DNA of 35,613 nucleotides, taken from a virus. The stretch is from the IMG/VR virus record IMGVR_UViG_3300045988_062966, positions 1 to 35,613 of that record, one strand, 5' to 3'. Positions 2,212 through 8,536 of the stretch are shown here, piece by piece; within the stretch, counting starts at the first letter, position 1; the number at the start of each line of letters is the position of its first letter. A program made the translations under genes and the position numbers. The notes under the pieces are model-generated. The model was given only the letters and a program-made list of their open reading frames with translations. It ran no database searches and was not told where the DNA came from.

Positions 2212-2522
2212 CGCTCAAGAAAGTCTCTCGTCTCATGCCCATCGATCCGCCTTCCATGGAACACGCGCCGAAGCGCCTGCCGTTCACTTTCACCGAGGTG
2301 GATATCGACGACATCGAAACATACCCGCCTGAGGGAGCCCCTCTCTTTTTCATCCTGAAGGAGGGGCTCTGGGATCGCTTCTACGGCGAACGTCGAGGCT
2401 TCACCGTCTTCTCCGATCTCTACGGGCTCACTTTCAAGCTCGACCAGATCAAGGCATGGTCTCCCGCAGGCTTTACATCCTCTGAGAGCTATCAGCGTGA
2501 GTTGAGGAAGATCCGTGGTTAA
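2208..2522 (+). CDS. Hypothetical protein
   Basis: 104-aa ORF with an ATGA overlap with the upstream gene. Confidence 0.5.
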   Translation: MTLKKVSRLMPIDPPSMEHAPKRLPFTFTEVDIDDIETYPPEGAPLFFILKEGLWDRFYGERRGFTVFSDLYGLTFKLDQIKAWSPAGFTSSESYQRELRKIRG

Positions 2523-2922
2523 GCTCACTATCCCCGGCACACCACAAGGCAAGGCACGCCCGCGCTTCTCTCGAACCGGGCACGCCTACACGCCGGACGC
2601 TACCCGCCGCTACGAAGCCCGCGTATCGGTCTACGGCAAGTACGCCATGTGCAACGAAGACATTTTTCGCGGAGCCGTCAAGGTCTCGATCCTGGCCGCT
2701 TTCCCCGTGCCCGCTTCGTACTCTCAGAAGCGCCGCGCAGCATGTCTGCAGGGCAGCGAGCGCCCGGCCAAGAAGCCCGACATGGACAACATCATCAAGA
2801 TCATCTGCGACGGCCTGAACGGCATCGCGTGGAAGGATGACGCTCAAGTCGTCGAGGTCACCGCCTCCAAGACCTATGCCGAACTTCCTTCCGTCACCGT
2901 CTACATCGAGGAGCTTGAATGA
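2515..2922 (+). CDS. rusA: RusA-family Holliday junction resolvase
   Basis: Signature motifs LTIPGTPQGKARPRF ... KKPDMDNIIKIICDGLNGIAWKDDAQV. GTG start overlapping the upstream stop. Confidence 0.85.
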   Translation: MVKLTIPGTPQGKARPRFSRTGHAYTPDATRRYEARVSVYGKYAMCNEDIFRGAVKVSILAAFPVPASYSQKRRAACLQGSERPAKKPDMDNIIKIICDGLNGIAWKDDAQVVEVTASKTYAELPSVTVYIEELE

Positions 2923-3317
2923 TCGACCCATACTTCGAACGCCGCCTCGCCAACTGGTCGAGGTACATCCGAGGCGGCAACGGCCCGGCAGGCATCTCGT
3001 CAATGGCTCAAGCGATGGAGGCGCTTCGGCTCTACGGCCCCAACAAGCCGGCAGAGGAAGAGGGCACCGGAGCAAGCCCCTCCAGAAAGATTGACGTGCG
3101 CGACGCTGAAAAACTTTGCCTCGCTTACGGCGGCCCGTGGCTTACGCCGAACGAGAAGAAGACTCTGCGACTCAAGTACGGCATTGGACTCTCTGACATG
3201 ACCTGCGCACGCCGACTGCGCGTCGGCTATCGGTTCTTTCTGAAACAACTCGACAGCCTTCTGTGGAAGTTTCAGCACATCGTCGAAACAAACTTCGACG
3301 AATCCGATGTATACTGA
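2919..3317 (+). CDS. Putative late-gene regulator (Q-type antiterminator-like)
   Basis: It is the last early gene before the late operon. N-terminal RLANWSRY and central DVRDAEKL ... LRLKYGIGLS ... ARRLRV recall small Q antiterminators. It is followed by a hairpin and terminator. Confidence 0.45.
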   Translation: MIDPYFERRLANWSRYIRGGNGPAGISSMAQAMEALRLYGPNKPAEEEGTGASPSRKIDVRDAEKLCLAYGGPWLTPNEKKTLRLKYGIGLSDMTCARRLRVGYRFFLKQLDSLLWKFQHIVETNFDESDVY

Positions 3318-3355
3318 CGTCACAGTTATAACACCGCTACTTCTTCGTACGCGAG

Positions 3356-3381
3356 ACAATGATCCCGGTTGGGATCATTGT
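3356..3381 (+). promoter_or_regulatory. Perfect 11-bp stem hairpin ACAATGATCCC-GGTT-GGGATCATTGT downstream of the Q-like gene
   Basis: Inverted repeat read directly. Confidence 0.6.
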
Positions 3382-3403
3382 TGCACCCGGAAGAAACAAC
3401 CAC

Positions 3404-3427
3404 GCCCGACATGTGCGGGCTTTTTAT
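3404..3427 (+). terminator. Candidate intrinsic terminator (tR-prime-like): GCCCG-N7-CGGGC then TTTTTAT
   Basis: A short GC stem plus a T-run lies between the Q-like gene and the late genes. Confidence 0.45.
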
Positions 3428-3441
3428 TGCCCGTCCACCCC

Positions 3442-3651
3442 ATGGGAAAGCTCGCAGTTACATACCGGAAGGTCGACGACCTCATTGGAGGCTCTGGGAC
3501 GACATTGATCGCAGGTGAAGGAACTGGTCGCGTCGCTTACCTGATGGAACTCGATCCCGTTTACGTTGATGTGATAATCAAGAGGTGGCAGGGAATGACG
3601 GGGCTTGAAGCCGTTCGCGATGACGGCAAAACCTACAACTCGCTGATTTGA
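3442..3651 (+). pseudogene. Internally deleted DNA methyltransferase remnant (ParB-like N-terminus fused in frame to the C-terminal AdoMet motif region)
   Basis: The 69-aa product is MGKLAVTYRKVDDLI|GGSGTTLIAGEGTGRVAYLMELDPVYVDVIIKRWQGMTG. The first 15 aa look like the start of ParB-domain methylases. The rest looks like the (F)GGSGTT motif-I end of N6/N4 methylases. The catalytic middle is absent. Confidence 0.6.
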
Positions 3652-3654
3652 AAC

Positions 3655-3689
3655 CTCTCGGAGGGGGGACCCAGTAACCGAGAGTTTTT
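3655..3689 (+). terminator. Intrinsic terminator CTCTCGG-N16-CCGAGAG-TTTTT
   Basis: 7-bp stem plus T5, read directly. Confidence 0.55.
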
Positions 3690-3759
3690 CAACCCTGTTT
3701 GAAGGATTGTCTTAACTCGGCGATATCGGAACTGCCCCGTACCTCCCGAGAGTATTCAT

Positions 3760-4125
3760 ATGAAGACGAAACCGCGAATTCAGATCGATCTGCGTAAGGT
3801 TGAAGAATACGCACAGGTCTGCGACAACGAAGAGGAGATCGCCAATGCCTTGGGTATCTCCTACTCCACCCTGCAATCTCGAAAAAGAGAAAGCGAAGAA
3901 TTTAGGATCGCTATAAAAAGGGGGAAAGCGAAGGCTAACGTCTTCGTTGGCGGAAAGCTCATGGAAAAGATCAAGAGCGGGGATACCGCCTCGATCATCT
4001 TCTACATGAAGTCCCGATGCGGATGGAAGGAAACGCAGCGCCTCGAAGGCGAAATGACGACGACCAAGAAACCGCCCGAGGGCTTGCAGGGCATTTATAA
4101 CGCGCTGGCCCGAGGTAAAAAGTAA
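3760..4125 (+). CDS. terS: Terminase small subunit
   Basis: 121 aa with the HTH-like segment EEIANALGISYSTLQSRKRESEEF. It lies immediately upstream of TerL with an ATGA-type overlap. Confidence 0.7.
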   Translation: MKTKPRIQIDLRKVEEYAQVCDNEEEIANALGISYSTLQSRKRESEEFRIAIKRGKAKANVFVGGKLMEKIKSGDTASIIFYMKSRCGWKETQRLEGEMTTTKKPPEGLQGIYNALARGKK

Positions 4126-6287
4126 TGACAACCAATAGCGCCGACCCATTCGCGGAACTGTATAGGCCGCACCGATACAAGGTGTTTTACGGTGGTCGAG
4201 GCAGTGGCAAGAGCTGGGCAGTTGCGCGCGCGCTAATCGCCATGGCTGATTTCGGGCGGGTGCGCATATTGTGTTGCCGCGAGGTGCAGAACTCTATCCG
4301 CGATTCGTCGTATCAGACGCTGAAAGACACGGCGGAGCGCATTGGCCTGTTTGACCGGTTCGACTTCAAAGAGTCGGAGATAGAGCATAAGCGCACCGGG
4401 AGCCGCTTTATCTTCTCGGGCCTCTTGCGTAATGAGAACTCGATTAGGTCAAAGGAAGGCATTGACATCTGTTGGATTGAAGAGGCGTCATCCGTTTCGC
4501 GAAAGTCGTGGGACGTGCTGATTCCGACCATCCGCAGGCCTGGATCAGAATTGTGGCTAACGTTCAACCCGCTCACCGTCGACGACCCAACGAATGATTT
4601 CCTAGAGGCACCCCCGCCTGGCGCCTACGTTCGCAAGGTCAATTACACTGATAACCCGTATTTTCCCGAAGTCTTGCGCGAGCAGATGGAATGGGACAAG
4701 GCGAACGATTACGAGAAGTATCTGCATATTTGGGAGGGCTTCCCGCTCACGATCAGCGAGGCGCAGATTTTCCGCGGCAAGTACGTCGTTGAGGCGATTC
4801 CGGACGATCTTTGGCAACAGGCTGACCGACTGTTTTTCGGCGCCGACTTTGGTTTTTCGCGTGACCCGTCGACGCTGGTTCGATGCTTTATCTTGGATAA
4901 TCGCCTGTATATTGACCATGAGGCTTACGGCGTCGGGGTTGAAATCGACGAATTGCCTCAGCTGTATCGCTCGGTGCCGGAGTCGACGAAATGGCCAATT
5001 AAGGCGGACTGCGCTCGGCCTGAGACAATCAGCTATCTTAAGCGCCACGGGTTCAACATCGAGGGTGCTGAGAAATGGCCTGAGAGCATCGAGGAAGGCA
5101 TTAGCTTTATTCGAAGCTTTGACAAGGTCGTTATCGATCCGCGATGTGTGCACACGGCGGACGAGTTCAGGCTGTACTCGTACAAAACAGACAGACTGAC
5201 TGGCGAGGTTCTGCCAGTCGTCTTAGACAAAAACAATCACTGCATAGCGGAAGGGGCTTTAATTAGGACTAGCAACGGCGATATCCCTATTGAAAGAATC
5301 AATGTCGGCGACTTGGTTTTGACAAGGAAGGGATTTAAGCGGGTTTTGGCCAGTGCGATTACTGGCGAAAACAGAGAAGTCCTAGAAATAACAACAGGTT
5401 CAGAAACGTTAAAATGTACCGCAGAGCATCGAATCTTTACAAAGAATCGAGGCTTTGTTGAGGCGCAAAATTTAACTACTGAGGACGTGTTGTTATGTCT
5501 AAAACAGAAACCATTATTTACGACGGGAAGCGCTGGAACAGATAACCGGAATCAAAAAGACGAAGCGACAGGGTCTATTTCAAACGGTCTGTTACTGGTG
5601 GGTCAATATGGTTGCACAGATATATTTGTGAGAAAGCTAACGGCGCGATCCCGAAAGGCGCGCATATCCATCACAAAGATGGGGACACGCTTAACAACGA
5701 TCTGTCAAACCTTGAATGCCTTACGCCGCGCGCTCACCACAAAGAACATCCCCTTGTTGGCGAAGCTCTCGAAAGACAGCTTAAGCATCTCAATGAGATC
5801 AGAGGGAAAACAAAAGAGTGGCACGCTTCGAAGGAAGGCCACGAATGGCACAAGGCTCACGCTAAAGCCCACCACTGGGGGGTTTTTGACTTGCCGGAAA
5901 AAAAGTGCGCCCAATGTGGAAAAACATTTAAGCCTAAAACATATCGCGGAAAGTTCTGCTCAAACGCTTGTAAATCGGCGTGGCGGAGAGATCAAGGACT
6001 TGATAACGTCGAAGGGATTTGCGCTCAATGCGGAAAGGTTTTTACCTGCAACAAGTACAGCAAACAGCGTTTTTGTTCTAAAAGCTGTGCGAGGTGTTAC
6101 GAAGGTATGCAAAAAAGAAAAACGGGTTTATGACCTAACAATAGAAGGTCAGCCGGAGTTTTTCGCAAACGGTATTTTGGTTCACAACTGCATCGATGGA
6201 ATCAGGTATTCCCTGGTAGATTACATAAAGGCACGAGGCTATGGCTTCAAAATCTCGGAAGACGAAACGCCAGACCTCTGGATTTGA
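4125..6287 (+). CDS. terL: Terminase large subunit precursor (PBSX/TerL type) interrupted by a 316-codon intein; exteins 4125..5240 and 6189..6287
   Basis: Walker A GGRGSGKS, Walker B IDICWIEEA and nuclease motifs FGADFGFSRDPS are present. The motif ...DKNNH is split from CIDGIRYSLVDY by the intein. Confidence 0.9.
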   Translation: MTTNSADPFAELYRPHRYKVFYGGRGSGKSWAVARALIAMADFGRVRILCCREVQNSIRDSSYQTLKDTAERIGLFDRFDFKESEIEHKRTGSRFIFSGLLRNENSIRSKEGIDICWIEEASSVSRKSWDVLIPTIRRPGSELWLTFNPLTVDDPTNDFLEAPPPGAYVRKVNYTDNPYFPEVLREQMEWDKANDYEKYLHIWEGFPLTISEAQIFRGKYVVEAIPDDLWQQADRLFFGADFGFSRDPSTLVRCFILDNRLYIDHEAYGVGVEIDELPQLYRSVPESTKWPIKADCARPETISYLKRHGFNIEGAEKWPESIEEGISFIRSFDKVVIDPRCVHTADEFRLYSYKTDRLTGEVLPVVLDKNNHCIAEGALIRTSNGDIPIERINVGDLVLTRKGFKRVLASAITGENREVLEITTGSETLKCTAEHRIFTKNRGFVEAQNLTTEDVLLCLKQKPLFTTGSAGTDNRNQKDEATGSISNGLLLVGQYGCTDIFVRKLTARSRKARISITKMGTRLTTICQTLNALRRALTTKNIPLLAKLSKDSLSISMRSEGKQKSGTLRRKATNGTRLTLKPTTGGFLTCRKKSAPNVEKHLSLKHIAESSAQTLVNRRGGEIKDLITSKGFALNAERFLPATSTANSVFVLKAVRGVTKVCKKEKRVYDLTIEGQPEFFANGILVHNCIDGIRYSLVDYIKARGYGFKISEDETPDLWI
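5241..6188 (+). mobile_element. Class-1 intein inserted in the TerL nuclease motif
   Basis: Starts at Cys (CIAEGALIRTSNGD, block A) and contains LKCTAEHRIF (block B TxxH). Ends VYDLTIEGQPEFFANGILVHN followed by Cys+1. The segment is visibly more AT-rich than its flanks. Confidence 0.85.
5612..6133 (+). CDS. HNH endonuclease nested inside the intein in the +2 frame (HNH-like sequence extends upstream to ATG 5495 but is interrupted by TAA 5543-5545)
   Basis: LHRYICEKANGAIPKGAHIHHKDGDTLNNDLSNLECLTPRAHHKEH, plus two CxxCGK..F...FCSxxC zinc-ribbon repeats. The frame differs from TerL (4125 mod 3 = 0; 5612 mod 3 = 2). Confidence 0.8.
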   Translation: MHRYICEKANGAIPKGAHIHHKDGDTLNNDLSNLECLTPRAHHKEHPLVGEALERQLKHLNEIRGKTKEWHASKEGHEWHKAHAKAHHWGVFDLPEKKCAQCGKTFKPKTYRGKFCSNACKSAWRRDQGLDNVEGICAQCGKVFTCNKYSKQRFCSKSCARCYEGMQKRKTGL

Positions 6288-7728
6288 GGTCACCGGCGAA
6301 TACGACGGCACCACCACGGTTGTCGACGCTATCCCGCAAGAGAAGGACATTCGCGAACTACTCAAGCCCGCGCGTTCACTCGCAGGATCAAAAGCGCACT
6401 ACAAACAGCTTGATGGCGCCATGGACGCGGCTTTTGCTGGCGGCATCGTGCCTAAGTTCGAATGGTCTGCGATCTCAAGCCTTGTCAGCTTTGTGGGCTA
6501 CGGCGTTTTGCAACAGCTTTCGCAGGACGCGCTGATTCGCCTGTGCATTCAAACCCGCACCGATGAGATGCTGCGGGCGTGGATTGAAATCAAGTGTGAC
6601 GACAACGAGCGCAAGAAGGCACTAGAGGAAGAGATTGCCCGCATCGGCTTGCGCGATACCCTTTATAAGGCGCTCACGACAATGGGCCTGATGGGCGGCG
6701 CCTTCCTGTTTATCGACACGGGGCACGCCAAGCCGGATGAGGTGCTTAACAAGACAGCACGCTCGACTGAGCTTAAAGACCGCGTATCGTTTCGCGTGAT
6801 TGATCCGATCTTTACGACGCCGCAGAGCTTTAACGCGTCCGACCCGCTCAAAGAAGATTTTTACAAGCCCGCTGTGTTCTACATCATGGGAACGGCGGTG
6901 CATACGTCGCGCCTGATCCGCCTTGTGGAAAACGAGGTGCCGGACTTAATCAAGCCGTCGTATAACTTTTTCGGAATCGCTCAGGCTCAGTTGCTTTCGG
7001 ACTACGTGATGCACTTCCGCAAGAACCGCGAGGAAGTAAATACGCTTCTTACAAAGTTCTCGACGAGCTTCATTAAAACAGATTTGGGCGCTCAGCTCTT
7101 TGCTCGCAAGTCGTGGCAACCTGTTAGCGACCGCGTGAAGTTCTTTGCGAAGTTCCGCGACAATAACGGCGTCGGCCTCCTCGACAAGGACAAAGAAGAC
7201 TTTGTACAGGTCAACACGCCGATTACCGGCCTAACGGACATCGTGCGCCAGTCGCTTGAGTTCGTTGTGTCGGTCAACCAAAGCGGCGTGGTGAAGACGC
7301 TCGGGCAGTCGCCGTCGGGCTTTAACGCCACGGGCGAGAGCGACATAAAGCTACAGGCCGACTTAATCGCCACGCGGCAGGAGAAGATTCTGCGGCGCCC
7401 GCTTGAAGATATTCTGCGCATTCTGCAAATCAATCTCTTCGGTGACATTGATCCTAGTTTGAGCTTTGAATTCTGCTCACTCGACGAAGACGACGAGCGC
7501 ACGACGGCAGAGGTCAATAAGATGATGGCCGACACGGCCGCCGTCTACCTTGATCGCGGGGTGCTCTCAGAGGACGAAGTCCGCGCGGCGTTGAGTAATG
7601 CCAAGGACCATCCGTACGGTGATCTCGAAGGGGAAGCCCCGGGGGCGCCGGAAGACCCGTTCGGCCAAATGAGCAGCACGACCACGGAGGAGCGCGATGA
7701 CAACGACAAGGCTGGCGCAGTCTACTGA
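6241..7728 (+). CDS. Portal protein (DUF1073-like)
   Basis: 495 aa directly after TerL, with an acidic C-terminus. The order matches portal / Mu-F / protease modules. The start is uncertain because it overlaps TerL by 47 nt. Confidence 0.75.
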   Translation: MASKSRKTKRQTSGFEVTGEYDGTTTVVDAIPQEKDIRELLKPARSLAGSKAHYKQLDGAMDAAFAGGIVPKFEWSAISSLVSFVGYGVLQQLSQDALIRLCIQTRTDEMLRAWIEIKCDDNERKKALEEEIARIGLRDTLYKALTTMGLMGGAFLFIDTGHAKPDEVLNKTARSTELKDRVSFRVIDPIFTTPQSFNASDPLKEDFYKPAVFYIMGTAVHTSRLIRLVENEVPDLIKPSYNFFGIAQAQLLSDYVMHFRKNREEVNTLLTKFSTSFIKTDLGAQLFARKSWQPVSDRVKFFAKFRDNNGVGLLDKDKEDFVQVNTPITGLTDIVRQSLEFVVSVNQSGVVKTLGQSPSGFNATGESDIKLQADLIATRQEKILRRPLEDILRILQINLFGDIDPSLSFEFCSLDEDDERTTAEVNKMMADTAAVYLDRGVLSEDEVRAALSNAKDHPYGDLEGEAPGAPEDPFGQMSSTTTEERDDNDKAGAVY

Positions 7729-8536
7729 CGTACGTATCCGTGCCGTGCGTCCTAATGCAGGGATTCGGAAGGCGTACGCGGGCAAACTGCGCTCGCTCGT
7801 GCGTCAGATGGCGCAAGACGTCGCCAAAGAGCTTGAGGGGCTGTATCGCAAGGTCGAGCCGCGGATTGCGAAAGACGCACGGGGCGAATCCCCTGCCGAG
7901 CGCTTGCAAAAGATCATTGATCGAATGCGCAAGAAGTGGGAAGGATATTCGCGGGACTTTGCCGAAGACACGGCGGACTGGTTCGTAAGGAAGACGCGCG
8001 ACCACGTCGACCGGGCGCAGAACTCAGCGCTACGGGATTCGGGGTTTGAGGCGTTCGACCTGCGTTTTGACAAGGGGCAGATTTCTCAAGACGCTTTTGA
8101 CGCACTTGTGAACGCCAATACGTCGCTTATTAAGTCCATCAGCTCCCATTATCTTCAGGAGGTCGAGGGGCTTGTCATGCGGGCCGTGACTGACGGGCGA
8201 GACGTGGCAGGGCTTAAGTCAGAGCTATCCAAGCGCTACGGCATCACACAGCGCCGGGCGGACTTCATTGCTCGCGATCAGTGCAATAAAGCAACCGAAG
8301 CCCTGTGCCGCGCGAATGATCTTGAGGTTGGTGTTGAGCAGGGCGAATGGATTCACGTTCCCGGCAAGCACACGAGCCGAGAGACGCACAAGGCGATGGG
8401 CGGCAAAAAGTTCGACCTAAAAAAAGGGCTGTACGACAGCGACGTTGGGCGCTACGTACTTCCGGGGGAACTTTGTGCGTGCCAGTGTACGTATCGTCCA
8501 ATATTTAGTAGGAAGCTATGGGAAAAGAACTCTTAG
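7697..8536 (+). CDS. Head morphogenesis protein (Mu gpF / SPP1 gp7 family)
   Basis: YGITQRRADFIARDQCNKATEAL ... W.HVPGKHTSRETHKAMGGKKF resembles the Mu-F domain. GGAGGAG lies upstream. Confidence 0.75.
   Translation: MTTTRLAQSTDVRIRAVRPNAGIRKAYAGKLRSLVRQMAQDVAKELEGLYRKVEPRIAKDARGESPAERLQKIIDRMRKKWEGYSRDFAEDTADWFVRKTRDHVDRAQNSALRDSGFEAFDLRFDKGQISQDAFDALVNANTSLIKSISSHYLQEVEGLVMRAVTDGRDVAGLKSELSKRYGITQRRADFIARDQCNKATEALCRANDLEVGVEQGEWIHVPGKHTSRETHKAMGGKKFDLKKGLYDSDVGRYVLPGELCACQCTYRPIFSRKLWEKNS

Follow-up and report, generated by a model that had tools for sequence, protein, structure and literature searches.

A putative HNH homing-endonuclease gene nested in the −1 frame of a terminase intein in a virus genome

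We analysed a 35,613-nucleotide stretch of viral DNA (IMG/VR record IMGVR_UViG_3300045988_062966, hereafter the window) and found that the intein of its large-terminase gene (terL) contains an HNH nuclease gene, which is read from the intein's strand but in another frame. We consider it likely that the element is a class-1 terminase intein carrying a homing-endonuclease gene of the free-standing type in the −1 (+2) frame. The layout is of a kind known since 2025; it occurs here with a different nuclease family and is much commoner than the "rare" of its first description. The significance of the window genome alone is modest because its copy of the nuclease gene is broken.

The terminase intein and the HNH gene in the window

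The features of the locus, all on the plus strand, are as follows.

4125..6287, +, terL precursor ORF, 720 aa, frame 0 (N-extein, intein and C-extein), from the ORF list and Pfam
4125..5240, +, N-extein, 372 aa, with the ATPase and most of the nuclease domain, ending ...VVLDKNNH; colinear with intein-less terminases
5241..5510, +, N-terminal splicing region of the intein, residues 1-90, with Cys1 and block B T-A-E-H (Pfam Hint_2 and Intein_splicing)
5481..5485, +, GAGGA, resembling a Shine-Dalgarno motif and 9 nt ahead of the HNH ATG, made by intein Glu-Asp codons
5495..5545, +, 5′ end of HNH, translated in frame +2: ATG and 15 codons (MSKTETIIYDGKRWNR), then TAA at 5543-5545
5511..6071, +, frame-0 linker, intein residues 91-277, which is the HNH gene read in the other frame; stop-free
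5546..6133, +, HNH gene after the TAA, frame +2, with 195 codons and TGA at 6131-6133; 95% identical to the intact 212-aa homologue P0001
5609..5740, +, HNH catalytic motif (LHRYICEKANGAIPKGAHIHHKDGDTLNNDLSNLECLTPRAH); Pfam HNH_3, 4e-16, residues 22-65 of the protein read from 5546
5906..5971, +, zinc ribbon 1 (CAQCGK...FCSNAC); conserved Cys, weak treble-clef Pfam hits, YacG-like in the fold search
6020..6088, +, zinc ribbon 2 (CAQCGK...FCSKSC); invariant C176, C179, C194 and C198, and fold search
6072..6188, +, C-terminal splicing region of the intein, blocks F and G, VYDLTIEG...GILVHN (Pfam)
6189..6287, +, C-extein, 32 aa, with Cys+1 and the CIDGIRY nuclease motif, plus the stop codon; aligned with intein-less terminases

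The terL insert is a class-1 intein that interrupts the large terminase in its nuclease motif, in agreement with a sequence-only reading of the window. The 720-aa ORF matched the Pfam families Terminase_3 (5e-37) and Terminase_3C (3e-16), and the intein occupies exactly 316 codons (5241-6188) between ...VVLDKNNH and CIDGIRY.... Within it, Intein_splicing was detected at 5e-14 (52.8 bits, cut-off 35.8) together with Hint_2, and the class-1 residues are present as Cys1 (5241-5243), Thr-x-x-His in the form TAEH, the terminal His-Asn of ILVHN, and Cys+1. When the insert was removed, the resulting 404-aa terminase aligned in one piece across the junction (residues 6-389) with intein-less phage terminases at 50-53% identity. 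A DNA search with terL against phage records recovered extein similarity only, which stopped at the insertion site, and no close phage relative. The published terminase intein of Acinetobacter phage TaPaz uses another insertion site and was set aside as not relevant. The GC content of the intein is 45.6%, against 57.1% for the whole window, so that the AT-richness noticed by eye in the sequence-only reading was real.

That reading had also separated the two frames, describing a splicing domain without an endonuclease motif in frame 0 and an HNH enzyme with two zinc ribbons in the +2 frame. Separate profile searches agreed, giving Hint and Intein_splicing in frame 0 and HNH_3 in the +2 frame, where both ribbons have the pattern CxxC...C..C. 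AlphaFold2 modelled the N-terminal and C-terminal splicing regions of the frame-0 intein at pLDDT 93-98 and 95-98, respectively, and the linker between them at 30-69, mostly below 50; a Pfam search of the linker returned no domain, endonuclease or other. Frame 0 is continuous in the window, with no stop after the N-terminal intein part (IntN) and no start of its own for the C-terminal part (IntC). The HNH gene (5495-6133, positions with remainder 2 on division by 3) runs between block B and block F, enclosed by a contiguous splicing domain. It is an independent gene at the place where the endonuclease domain of an intein normally sits, as had been proposed, and its TGA lies within the Y-D codons of block F. 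Upstream, the HNH frame is closed by a TGA four codons before ATG 5495. RNA structure near this start, which could hide the ribosome-binding site, was indistinguishable from that of shuffled sequence (z = +0.87).

The claim that the HNH frame is open from 5495 did not survive. The sequence-only reading missed the TAA at 5543-5545, codon 17 of the gene, which closes the frame after 16 codons, so the 213 overlapped codons do not form one intact HNH ORF in the window genome. Past the TAA the frame is open from 5546, and its first start codon is TTG at 5612. A 96% identical relative, L001, has TAT (Tyr) at codon 17, differing there from the window by a single A/T at position 5545, and encodes an intact 212-aa HNH protein; the ORF is intact in another relative, L002, as well. 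Tyr17 belongs to the conserved RYP motif of the family. Over the overlap, the window and L001 differ by 11 nonsynonymous HNH changes (one of them the stop) and 9 synonymous ones, small numbers that indicate only moderate constraint on HNH. The TAA is read as a recent nonsense mutation of Tyr17 (TAT to TAA), the HNH protein of the window is probably inactive, and the element is probably an immobile intein that still splices.

The HNH protein is predicted to be an I-HmuI-like nuclease of the His-Me finger type. Pfam detected HNH_3 only, with no Endonuclease_7 at E values up to 0.1, and the closest solved structure was I-HmuI (PDB 1u3e; profile E 4e-5). The AlphaFold2 model of the intact P0001 protein (pLDDT 91) had 1u3e as its top Foldseek match at probability 0.84, but at a low global TM score of 0.22-0.26; the search gave nothing at E below 0.001 and, besides I-HmuI, just small zinc-ribbon proteins with weak scores. 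Across 30 homologues, residues H59, H60, D62, N67, N68, N72 and H85 of the HNH motif and C138, C141 and C155 of zinc ribbon 1 were invariant, with C159 conserved in at least 90%.

Relatives of the HNH gene and selection on the two frames

We surveyed 163 loci with a gene for an HNH homologue, taken from contigs of viruses and of bacterial and archaeal genomes. They comprised a first set of 83 (the window, L001, L002 and 80 viral-contig loci) and a second set of 80 genome-contig loci, and they are a sample of the 313 viral and 159 genomic matches in all. The overprinted layout is real and widespread and is no artefact: it was found in 104 loci (60 in the first set, 44 in the second), with HNH identities of 34-95%. 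In each of these, an intein-bearing ORF covers the whole HNH gene, and it is a terminase wherever the host gene could be typed. The spanning ORF is always in frame HNH+1, and the third frame is broken in every case. In all 60 overprinted loci of the first set, HNH has the Hint N- and C-terminal regions on its two sides in the host frame. Catalytic residues are retained in the homologous host ORFs: Cys1 in 59 of 60, the block-B Thr in 57, the block-B His in all 60 and the terminal Asn in 59, followed at +1 by Cys in 52 and Ser in 8. The hosts belong to two Pfam terminase families, Terminase_3 (32) and Terminase_6N (29), and the HNH loci span many bacterial phyla as well as archaea. In the 101 overprinted loci analysed for HNH integrity, the ORF was intact, with a median length of 214 aa and a minimum of 180; a truncated HNH ORF was seen in no overprinted locus but the window. 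It starts with ATG in 95 of these 101, and a Shine-Dalgarno-like motif precedes the start in only 55.

The same HNH family also lies between split-intein halves, in 41 of the 163 loci, and occurs where two intein profiles detected no intein, in 16. In most of the latter, coding sequence resembling a terminase N-extein stops 100-250 nt before HNH, so some of these seemingly free loci may be fractured genes whose split inteins escaped both profiles. HNH in frame with both splicing halves was seen in no sampled locus. This range of states bears out the proposal that the window layout is intermediate between canonical inteins and fractured genes. Terminases 69-72% identical to that of the window carry the same intein in the form of a 129-aa mini-intein lacking the HNH segment, and terminase alleles exist in three kinds: intein-less, with a mini-intein, and HNH-bearing, a presence/absence pattern that fits mobility. 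Two phages that have been isolated and deposited, Acinetobacter phage Highwayman and Tetrasphaera phage TJE1, have the overprinted layout within the CDS annotated as terL, which speaks for its viability and, indirectly, for splicing. The HNH homologue of Acinetobacter phage BP10 is a gene on its own, immediately before terS.

HNH-frame codons are used in a way that avoids stops in the host frame, and frame 0 is held open by selection. Across HNH, neither the window (213 codons, 5495-6133) nor any of the 104 overprinted loci has a host-frame stop, whereas 1.9 are expected once synonymous codons are permuted, and non-overprinted homologues have a mean of 7 stops in the corresponding frame. The sequence-only reading had called a stop-free frame 0 in the window very unlikely by chance. 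This held when the probability was computed from base composition (4e-6), from uniform synonymous codons (5e-5) or from the codon usage of the window (0.004), and was softened to 0.04 under the conservative null in which the gene's own synonymous codons are permuted; the selection that it had invoked is supported. The ratio of NTR to NTY codons is 506:1471 in overprinted HNH genes and 362:394 in other HNH genes, and in the window a pyrimidine follows all six NTR codons. Comparison by codon position, which that reading had put forward as a check, gave divergences of 0.47, 0.43 and 0.66 at HNH positions 1, 2 and 3. The most variable base of the overlap is accordingly the HNH third position, which is the second position of the host codon, and the HNH frame is therefore the one selected at the protein level. 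In a gene rich in K, R, E, D and N such as HNH, the −1 frame has about 7 removable stops, all at NTR codons, and the other frame about 21. The genetic code may thus be what sets the universal choice of the −1 frame; a single common origin, and not constraint, could also explain why the relative frame is constant.

Proposed mechanism and alternative explanations

We propose that translation in frame 0 would yield the 720-aa precursor, in which the HNH DNA is read as a disordered linker of about 190 residues rich in T, S, K and R. The Hint domain would fold around this linker and splice, releasing the 404-aa terminase with ...DKNNH-CIDGIRY... restored. The HNH protein would be made on its own, by internal initiation at ATG 5495 behind GAGGA, and would act as an I-HmuI-like nuclease with two zinc ribbons that cuts intein-less terL alleles; repair could then copy the intein-plus-HNH unit as a whole, resulting in homing. 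Since a frame-0 stop would truncate an essential protein, selection acts through the synonymous codons of the HNH frame, where NTR codons followed by a purine are avoided. Given the premature TAA, the step of HNH synthesis and homing is inoperable in the window genome as written. Overprinting may be a common and stable state of this HNH family in terminase inteins of bacterial and archaeal viruses and no rare transitional accident, a view that we hold tentatively and at slightly less than even chances. The family appears to switch repeatedly among overprinted, split-intein and free-standing states, which are interspersed on an unsupported neighbour-joining tree of HNH.

The TAA might instead be a base-call error, or HNH might restart downstream, for example at TTG 5612, leaving the nuclease active and the element mobile. 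In keeping with this, the gene has only one lesion, the remaining ORF keeps its 95% identity to P0001, and the A/T at 5545 is the sole difference from L001 at that codon. A restart at TTG 5612, however, would drop residues 1-39, including the conserved G..W.RYP...RSDR.YFKRS segment, which forms the beta strands before the HNH motif in the AlphaFold2 model, and the interval 5546-5612 offers neither ATG nor GTG. Readthrough would need a suppressor, and none is available from the window, in which a search for tRNA genes found none. We regard an active nuclease here as unlikely. Two compensating indels from sequencing or assembly could also mask an ordinary in-frame HNH intein; in-frame HNH inteins exist in the literature, and one genome alone cannot exclude such errors. 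This reading is effectively refuted by the identical frame offset in the 104 independently assembled and divergent loci and by its presence in the two isolated phages, with further evidence against it in the HNH gene's own ATG and stop, the TGA just before that ATG, and the lack of any sampled locus with HNH in frame with both splicing halves.

HNH shares the terL strand, is in the −1 frame and starts inside the host ORF, and these features would also fit programmed −1 ribosomal frameshifting off the terL frame, which would produce an N-extein-IntN-HNH fusion with no separate initiation. This is highly improbable: the ATG stands at the conserved N-terminus in nearly all HNH ORFs (95 of 101), the HNH frame of the window opens just four codons ahead of it, fractured relatives carry HNH as a plainly free-standing gene with its own start, and no stable RNA structure lies nearby. 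HNH proteins are encoded next to the terminase genes of HK97-like phages, and HNH could by analogy be a packaging cofactor of the terminase and no homing endonuclease. Its nearly constant association with terL and its place next to terS in phage BP10 are consistent with such a role, which we nevertheless judge very unlikely. HNH is located precisely where an intein has its endonuclease, the intein occurs without HNH in close terminases and many terminases have neither, the window genome tolerates a nonsense mutation in HNH, and the best relative in structure and sequence is the intron homing nuclease I-HmuI. Phage introns often carry HNH genes too, but a group I or group II intron in place of the intein has almost no probability, given that Rfam returned no match over 5000-6400 at E values up to 1, that the Hint and Intein_splicing domains were detected and their catalytic residues all share the reading frame of the exteins, and that frame 0 is kept open.

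Relation to known systems

The sequence-only reading knew of no description of this layout, but same-strand out-of-frame intein nucleases were first reported in 2025 by Gosselin, Arsenault and Gogarten (bioRxiv 10.1101/2025.01.02.630785), where antisense LAGLIDADG cases are cited back to Gorbalenya 1998; an out-of-frame nuclease in the cyanobacterial dnaX intein appeared in a 2026 preprint. The "non-canonical" actinobacteriophage inteins of Gosselin and colleagues resemble that of the window in being contiguous and, in some cases, in large terminases. Their nuclease gene is likewise enclosed by the splicing blocks and read from the intein's strand in the third frame (their reading frame 3), the in-frame reading has no recognisable fold, and the nuclease has relatives among the free-standing nucleases of phages. 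As to their origin, it was proposed that a free-standing nuclease gene invaded an intein (bioRxiv 10.1101/2025.01.02.630785). Their nuclease is endonuclease VII-like (IPR004211) and matches PDB 1E7D over residues 1-67, whereas the HNH protein of the window, compared with it by description, belongs to HNH_3 and has its catalytic motif in residues 40-85 and two zinc ribbons at the C-terminus, so that the domain order differs too. The hosts differ as well, being actinophages in their case and spread over bacteria and archaea for the HNH_3 loci, as does the frequency, given as rare in the preprint and as 104 of 163 sampled loci here.

In the fractured genes of Dassa et al. 2009 (PMC2677866), as here, a nuclease gene lies where the intein divides and runs at its 3′ end into the beginning of the IntC coding sequence. 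Exactly this arrangement is found in terL for 41 relatives of the window HNH. Fractured genes have a split intein, however, whereas that of the window is contiguous, without a stop after IntN or a separate IntC start, and the nucleases of that study are GIY-YIG and Vsr-like, not HNH; gene-breaking by an invading nuclease gene was the model proposed (PMC2677866). ShiLan-type phage DNA methylases (Arsenault et al. 2025, PMC11855218) likewise hide an HNH in an alternative frame of a stop-free host ORF, but their insertion has no detectable splicing domain, and the window HNH is flanked by a complete Hint domain. I-HmuI is an intron-encoded HNH nicking homing endonuclease from a group I intron of Bacillus phage SPO1, and its C-terminal DNA-binding modules differ from the two zinc ribbons found here. 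Canonical large inteins with an in-frame LAGLIDADG or HNH domain resemble the window intein in their splicing blocks and in the place of the nuclease DNA, after block B and before block F, but their nuclease is part of the intein polypeptide, and that of the window lies outside it.

The HNH_3 genes add a second nuclease family, seemingly far more abundant, to the inteins with out-of-frame homing endonucleases. With one family in overprinted, split-intein and intein-undetected states, the 2009 gene-breaking model becomes testable by comparison. If the overprinted state is indeed stable, the family would be a natural comparative system for the gain of nucleases by inteins and for the origin of split inteins. 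For annotation, gene callers give either the long terminase ORF or HNH, never both; the GenBank records of phages Highwayman and TJE1 list the terminase only.

The terL intein and its HNH gene

The features of the window on which the analysis centers are as follows.

4125..6287, + strand: terL, large terminase ORF of 720 aa (Pfam Terminase_3, 5e-37; Terminase_3C, 3e-16)
5241-6188, + strand: intein of exactly 316 codons between ...VVLDKNNH and CIDGIRY... (class-1 hallmarks and Pfam)
ATG 5495 to TGA 6131-6133, + strand, +2 frame: HNH_3 nuclease followed by two four-cysteine zinc ribbons (Pfam HNH_3, 4e-16)

The class-1 intein hallmarks were complete in the insert, including Cys1, T-A-E-H, VYDLTIEG...ILVHN, and Cys+1, and the Pfam Intein_splicing match scored 52.8 bits (cut-off, 35.8). 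When the 316 codons were taken out, the resulting 404-aa terminase aligned in one piece over the junction with intein-less phage terminases (50-53% identity), indicating that the intein boundaries are right. The GC content was 45.6% for the intein, compared with 57.1% for the window. The sequence-only reading had described this AT-richer class-1 intein and a +2-frame HNH enzyme with two zinc ribbons, and both were confirmed, the HNH stop codon falling within intein block F. At its 3′ end, terL is overlapped by 47 nt (6241-6287) in a different frame by the longest portal ORF (ATG 6241).

The AlphaFold2 model of P0001, an intact 212-aa HNH protein 95% identical to the window's HNH frame from 5546, had a mean pLDDT of 91 with 30 homologues aligned. 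Its best solved relative was the homing endonuclease I-HmuI (profile E 4e-5, Foldseek probability 0.84), and the zinc ribbons were YacG-like in the fold search. In the model of the frame-0 (terL-frame) intein, pLDDT was 93-98 at residues 1-90 and 278-316 and 30-69, mostly below 50, in the linker of roughly 190 residues; this prediction fits a mini-intein fold with a disordered loop where an endonuclease domain is usually inserted.

Arrangement of the HNH gene in relatives

More than 160 homologues of the HNH protein were present in the database, about 200-220 aa long and annotated only as HNH_3. The frame-0 intein as query matched two types of sequence, namely long terminase ORFs reading through a similar linker, and terminases (69-72% identical) in which the same intein lacks the HNH segment and is a mini-intein of 129 aa. 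We sampled loci that encode HNH homologues, 80 on viral contigs and 80 on genome contigs, the first set also containing the window, its close relative L001, and a further locus, L002, and classified them using our own scripts and two profiles made from the N- and C-terminal intein regions (IntN and IntC).

Arrangement of the HNH gene in the sampled loci (first set; genome-contig set; total)
Overprinted in a contiguous intein: 60/83; 44/80; 104
Fractured, between split-intein halves: 17/83; 24/80; 41
No intein detected: 6/83; 10/80; 16
Unresolved arrangement: 0/83; 2/80; 2

In the overprinted class, an ORF of 300-1190 codons spanned the whole HNH gene, without exception in frame HNH+1, with the Hint N- and C-terminal regions directly flanking HNH in that frame; the third frame was broken in every case. 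In fractured loci, a stop followed immediately past IntN, HNH began at an ATG of its own, and IntC was closely preceded by a start codon. The first 60 host ORFs, which were those typed with Pfam, were terminases of two families (Terminase_3 in 32, Terminase_6N in 29), and the relatives shared the window's insertion site in the nuclease motif, H|C...HN|C(I)DAxRY. Many bacterial phyla were represented among the genome contigs, as were archaea, among them Methanomethylophilaceae and a Thermoplasmatales MAG.

Two isolated and deposited phages, Acinetobacter phage vB_AbaM_Highwayman (OZ038341) and Tetrasphaera phage TJE1 (HQ225832), were both overprinted in terL; in each, the annotated terL CDS conceals an intact, unannotated HNH ORF (214-215 aa) in its -1 frame. 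Because the terminase is essential, splicing through the HNH-derived linker is presumably functional in these phages. Acinetobacter phage BP10 (L164, OP585104) carries a 45%-identical homologue (2507-3148) with an HNH endonuclease annotation; this free-standing gene immediately precedes terS and terL, and the terL has no intein.

Loci with no intein detected (e.g., L015, L020, L046, L048, L102, L131, and L142) mostly had terminase N-extein-like coding sequence ending 100-250 nt upstream of HNH; such terL genes may be fractured, their split inteins either divergent or absent. A second insertion point was apparent about four residues further (...HYIDA|C...HN|CRY... versus ...NNH|C...HN|CIDGIRY... 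in the window), carried by Highwayman (L163, 990-3281), L072, and L082. Some host terminase ORFs contained an additional upstream intein and appear doubly invaded: LAGLIDADG_3 matched in 3/60, and the longest host ORFs (L024, L044, and L064; 1109-1184 codons) had second IntN matches, weak in L024 (E 0.38). In two genome contigs (L090, 3703-4648; L156, 1728-2798), the host frame was interrupted or shifted from IntN to HNH, yet open over HNH; a transitional state, a pseudogene, or an assembly error could underlie either case.

Constraint on the two frames and the stop in the window

That the 213 stop-free codons of frame 0 were unlikely by chance, as proposed from the sequence alone, held to a degree that depended on the null: P was 4e-6 for base composition, 5e-5 when the HNH protein was recoded with synonymous codons at uniform frequency, 0.004 for recoding by the window's codon usage, and 0.04 for the conservative null in which the synonymous codons already present in the gene were permuted. 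Only an HNH codon NTR followed by a purine can create a host-frame stop, and the window's HNH gene has 6 NTR versus 27 NTY codons, with a pyrimidine after each NTR. Overprinted genes showed 0 host-frame stops versus 1.9 expected under synonymous permutation, and non-overprinted homologues a mean of 7 equivalent stops; the NTR:NTY ratios were 506:1471 and 362:394, respectively. The other alternative frame held 17-21 stops in both groups, which may be why the -1 frame is used exclusively, although a single common origin would also account for this. The three HNH codon positions, first to third, diverged pairwise by 0.47, 0.43, and 0.66 in overprinted genes, matching the pattern in non-overprinted homologues (0.45, 0.39, and 0.63) and thereby indicating that the HNH reading is the conserved protein. 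The host-frame linker is free to vary, apart from stop avoidance.

The HNH frame is not, as had been read, singly open from 5495. From its ATG, nine bases after a GAGGA motif, it runs 16 codons to an overlooked TAA (5543-5545). The codon is TAT (Tyr) in L001, the closest relative (41/1013 aligned bases differ), whose 212-aa HNH ORF is intact, and this Tyr belongs to the family's conserved RYP motif. No ATG or GTG lies in the window's HNH frame between the TAA and TTG 5612, and restart at that TTG would lose the conserved N-terminal 39 residues. HNH ORFs were at least 180 aa in all 101 overprinted loci analysed for length, and no other overprinted locus had a truncated one. No tRNA genes were found in the window. 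Barring a base-calling mistake for the A at 5545, the window's copy has most likely become a pseudogene recently. The HNH start codon sits in the intein's conserved L-L-C-L-K codons (TTA TGT CTA AAA, 5486-5503), and the GAGGA motif derives from conserved Glu-Asp codons; both LLCLK and ED are also kept in the mini-intein relatives.

Mechanism and known systems

Overprinting of HNH in the terL intein is well supported. Most likely, the terminase precursor would be translated through the linker and then spliced, while HNH translation would be initiated separately at the HNH start codon and its product would drive homing of intein and HNH as one unit into terL alleles lacking the intein. In the window's genome HNH is probably dead, and the intein still has to splice. 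Artefactual frameshifts are excluded by conservation of the arrangement in 104 independent loci. Fusion of HNH to the terL frame by programmed frameshifting is disfavoured, given the conserved ATG starts and the stop upstream in the HNH frame. Similarly, a role for HNH as a packaging cofactor is disfavoured by relatives that have the intein without HNH and by the nonsense mutation tolerated in the window; an intron ranks lower, as the insert had no Rfam match.

The earlier interpretation was largely right; it had missed that the HNH gene is broken, and its supposition that such an arrangement had not been described was wrong. Gosselin, Arsenault and Gogarten (bioRxiv 10.1101/2025.01.02.630785) reported inteins of actinophages, some of them terminase inteins, that contain an endonuclease VII-like enzyme encoded in reading frame 3, along with antisense LAGLIDADG and Vsr-like cases; they termed such architectures rare and proposed that free-standing nucleases invaded inteins. 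Out-of-frame HNH insertions without an intein (Arsenault et al. 2025, PMC11855218) and an out-of-frame nuclease in a dnaX intein (a 2026 preprint) have also been described, so the kind of arrangement is already known. Our fractured relatives are arranged as in Dassa et al. 2009 (PMC2677866). Within the literature searched, the new elements are an I-HmuI-like nuclease family of the HNH_3 type that bears two zinc ribbons, its breadth over bacterial and archaeal viruses, the frequency of its overprinting (104/163 sampled loci), and its co-occurrence with split-intein terL genes bearing the same nuclease. By description this family is set apart from the actinophage endonuclease VII-like nucleases, although a distant relationship is possible. 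The significance is moderate for the window alone and higher for the HNH family as a whole.

L001 also has a second intein of ~324 aa in a Mu F-like head gene (Phage_Mu_F and Intein_splicing, 2422-4233, + strand), with a 317-aa ORF bearing helix-turn-helix domains antisense within it (3220-4173, - strand). The Mu F gene of the window (7697-8536, 279 aa) has no intein, indicating a presence/absence polymorphism between near-identical phages.
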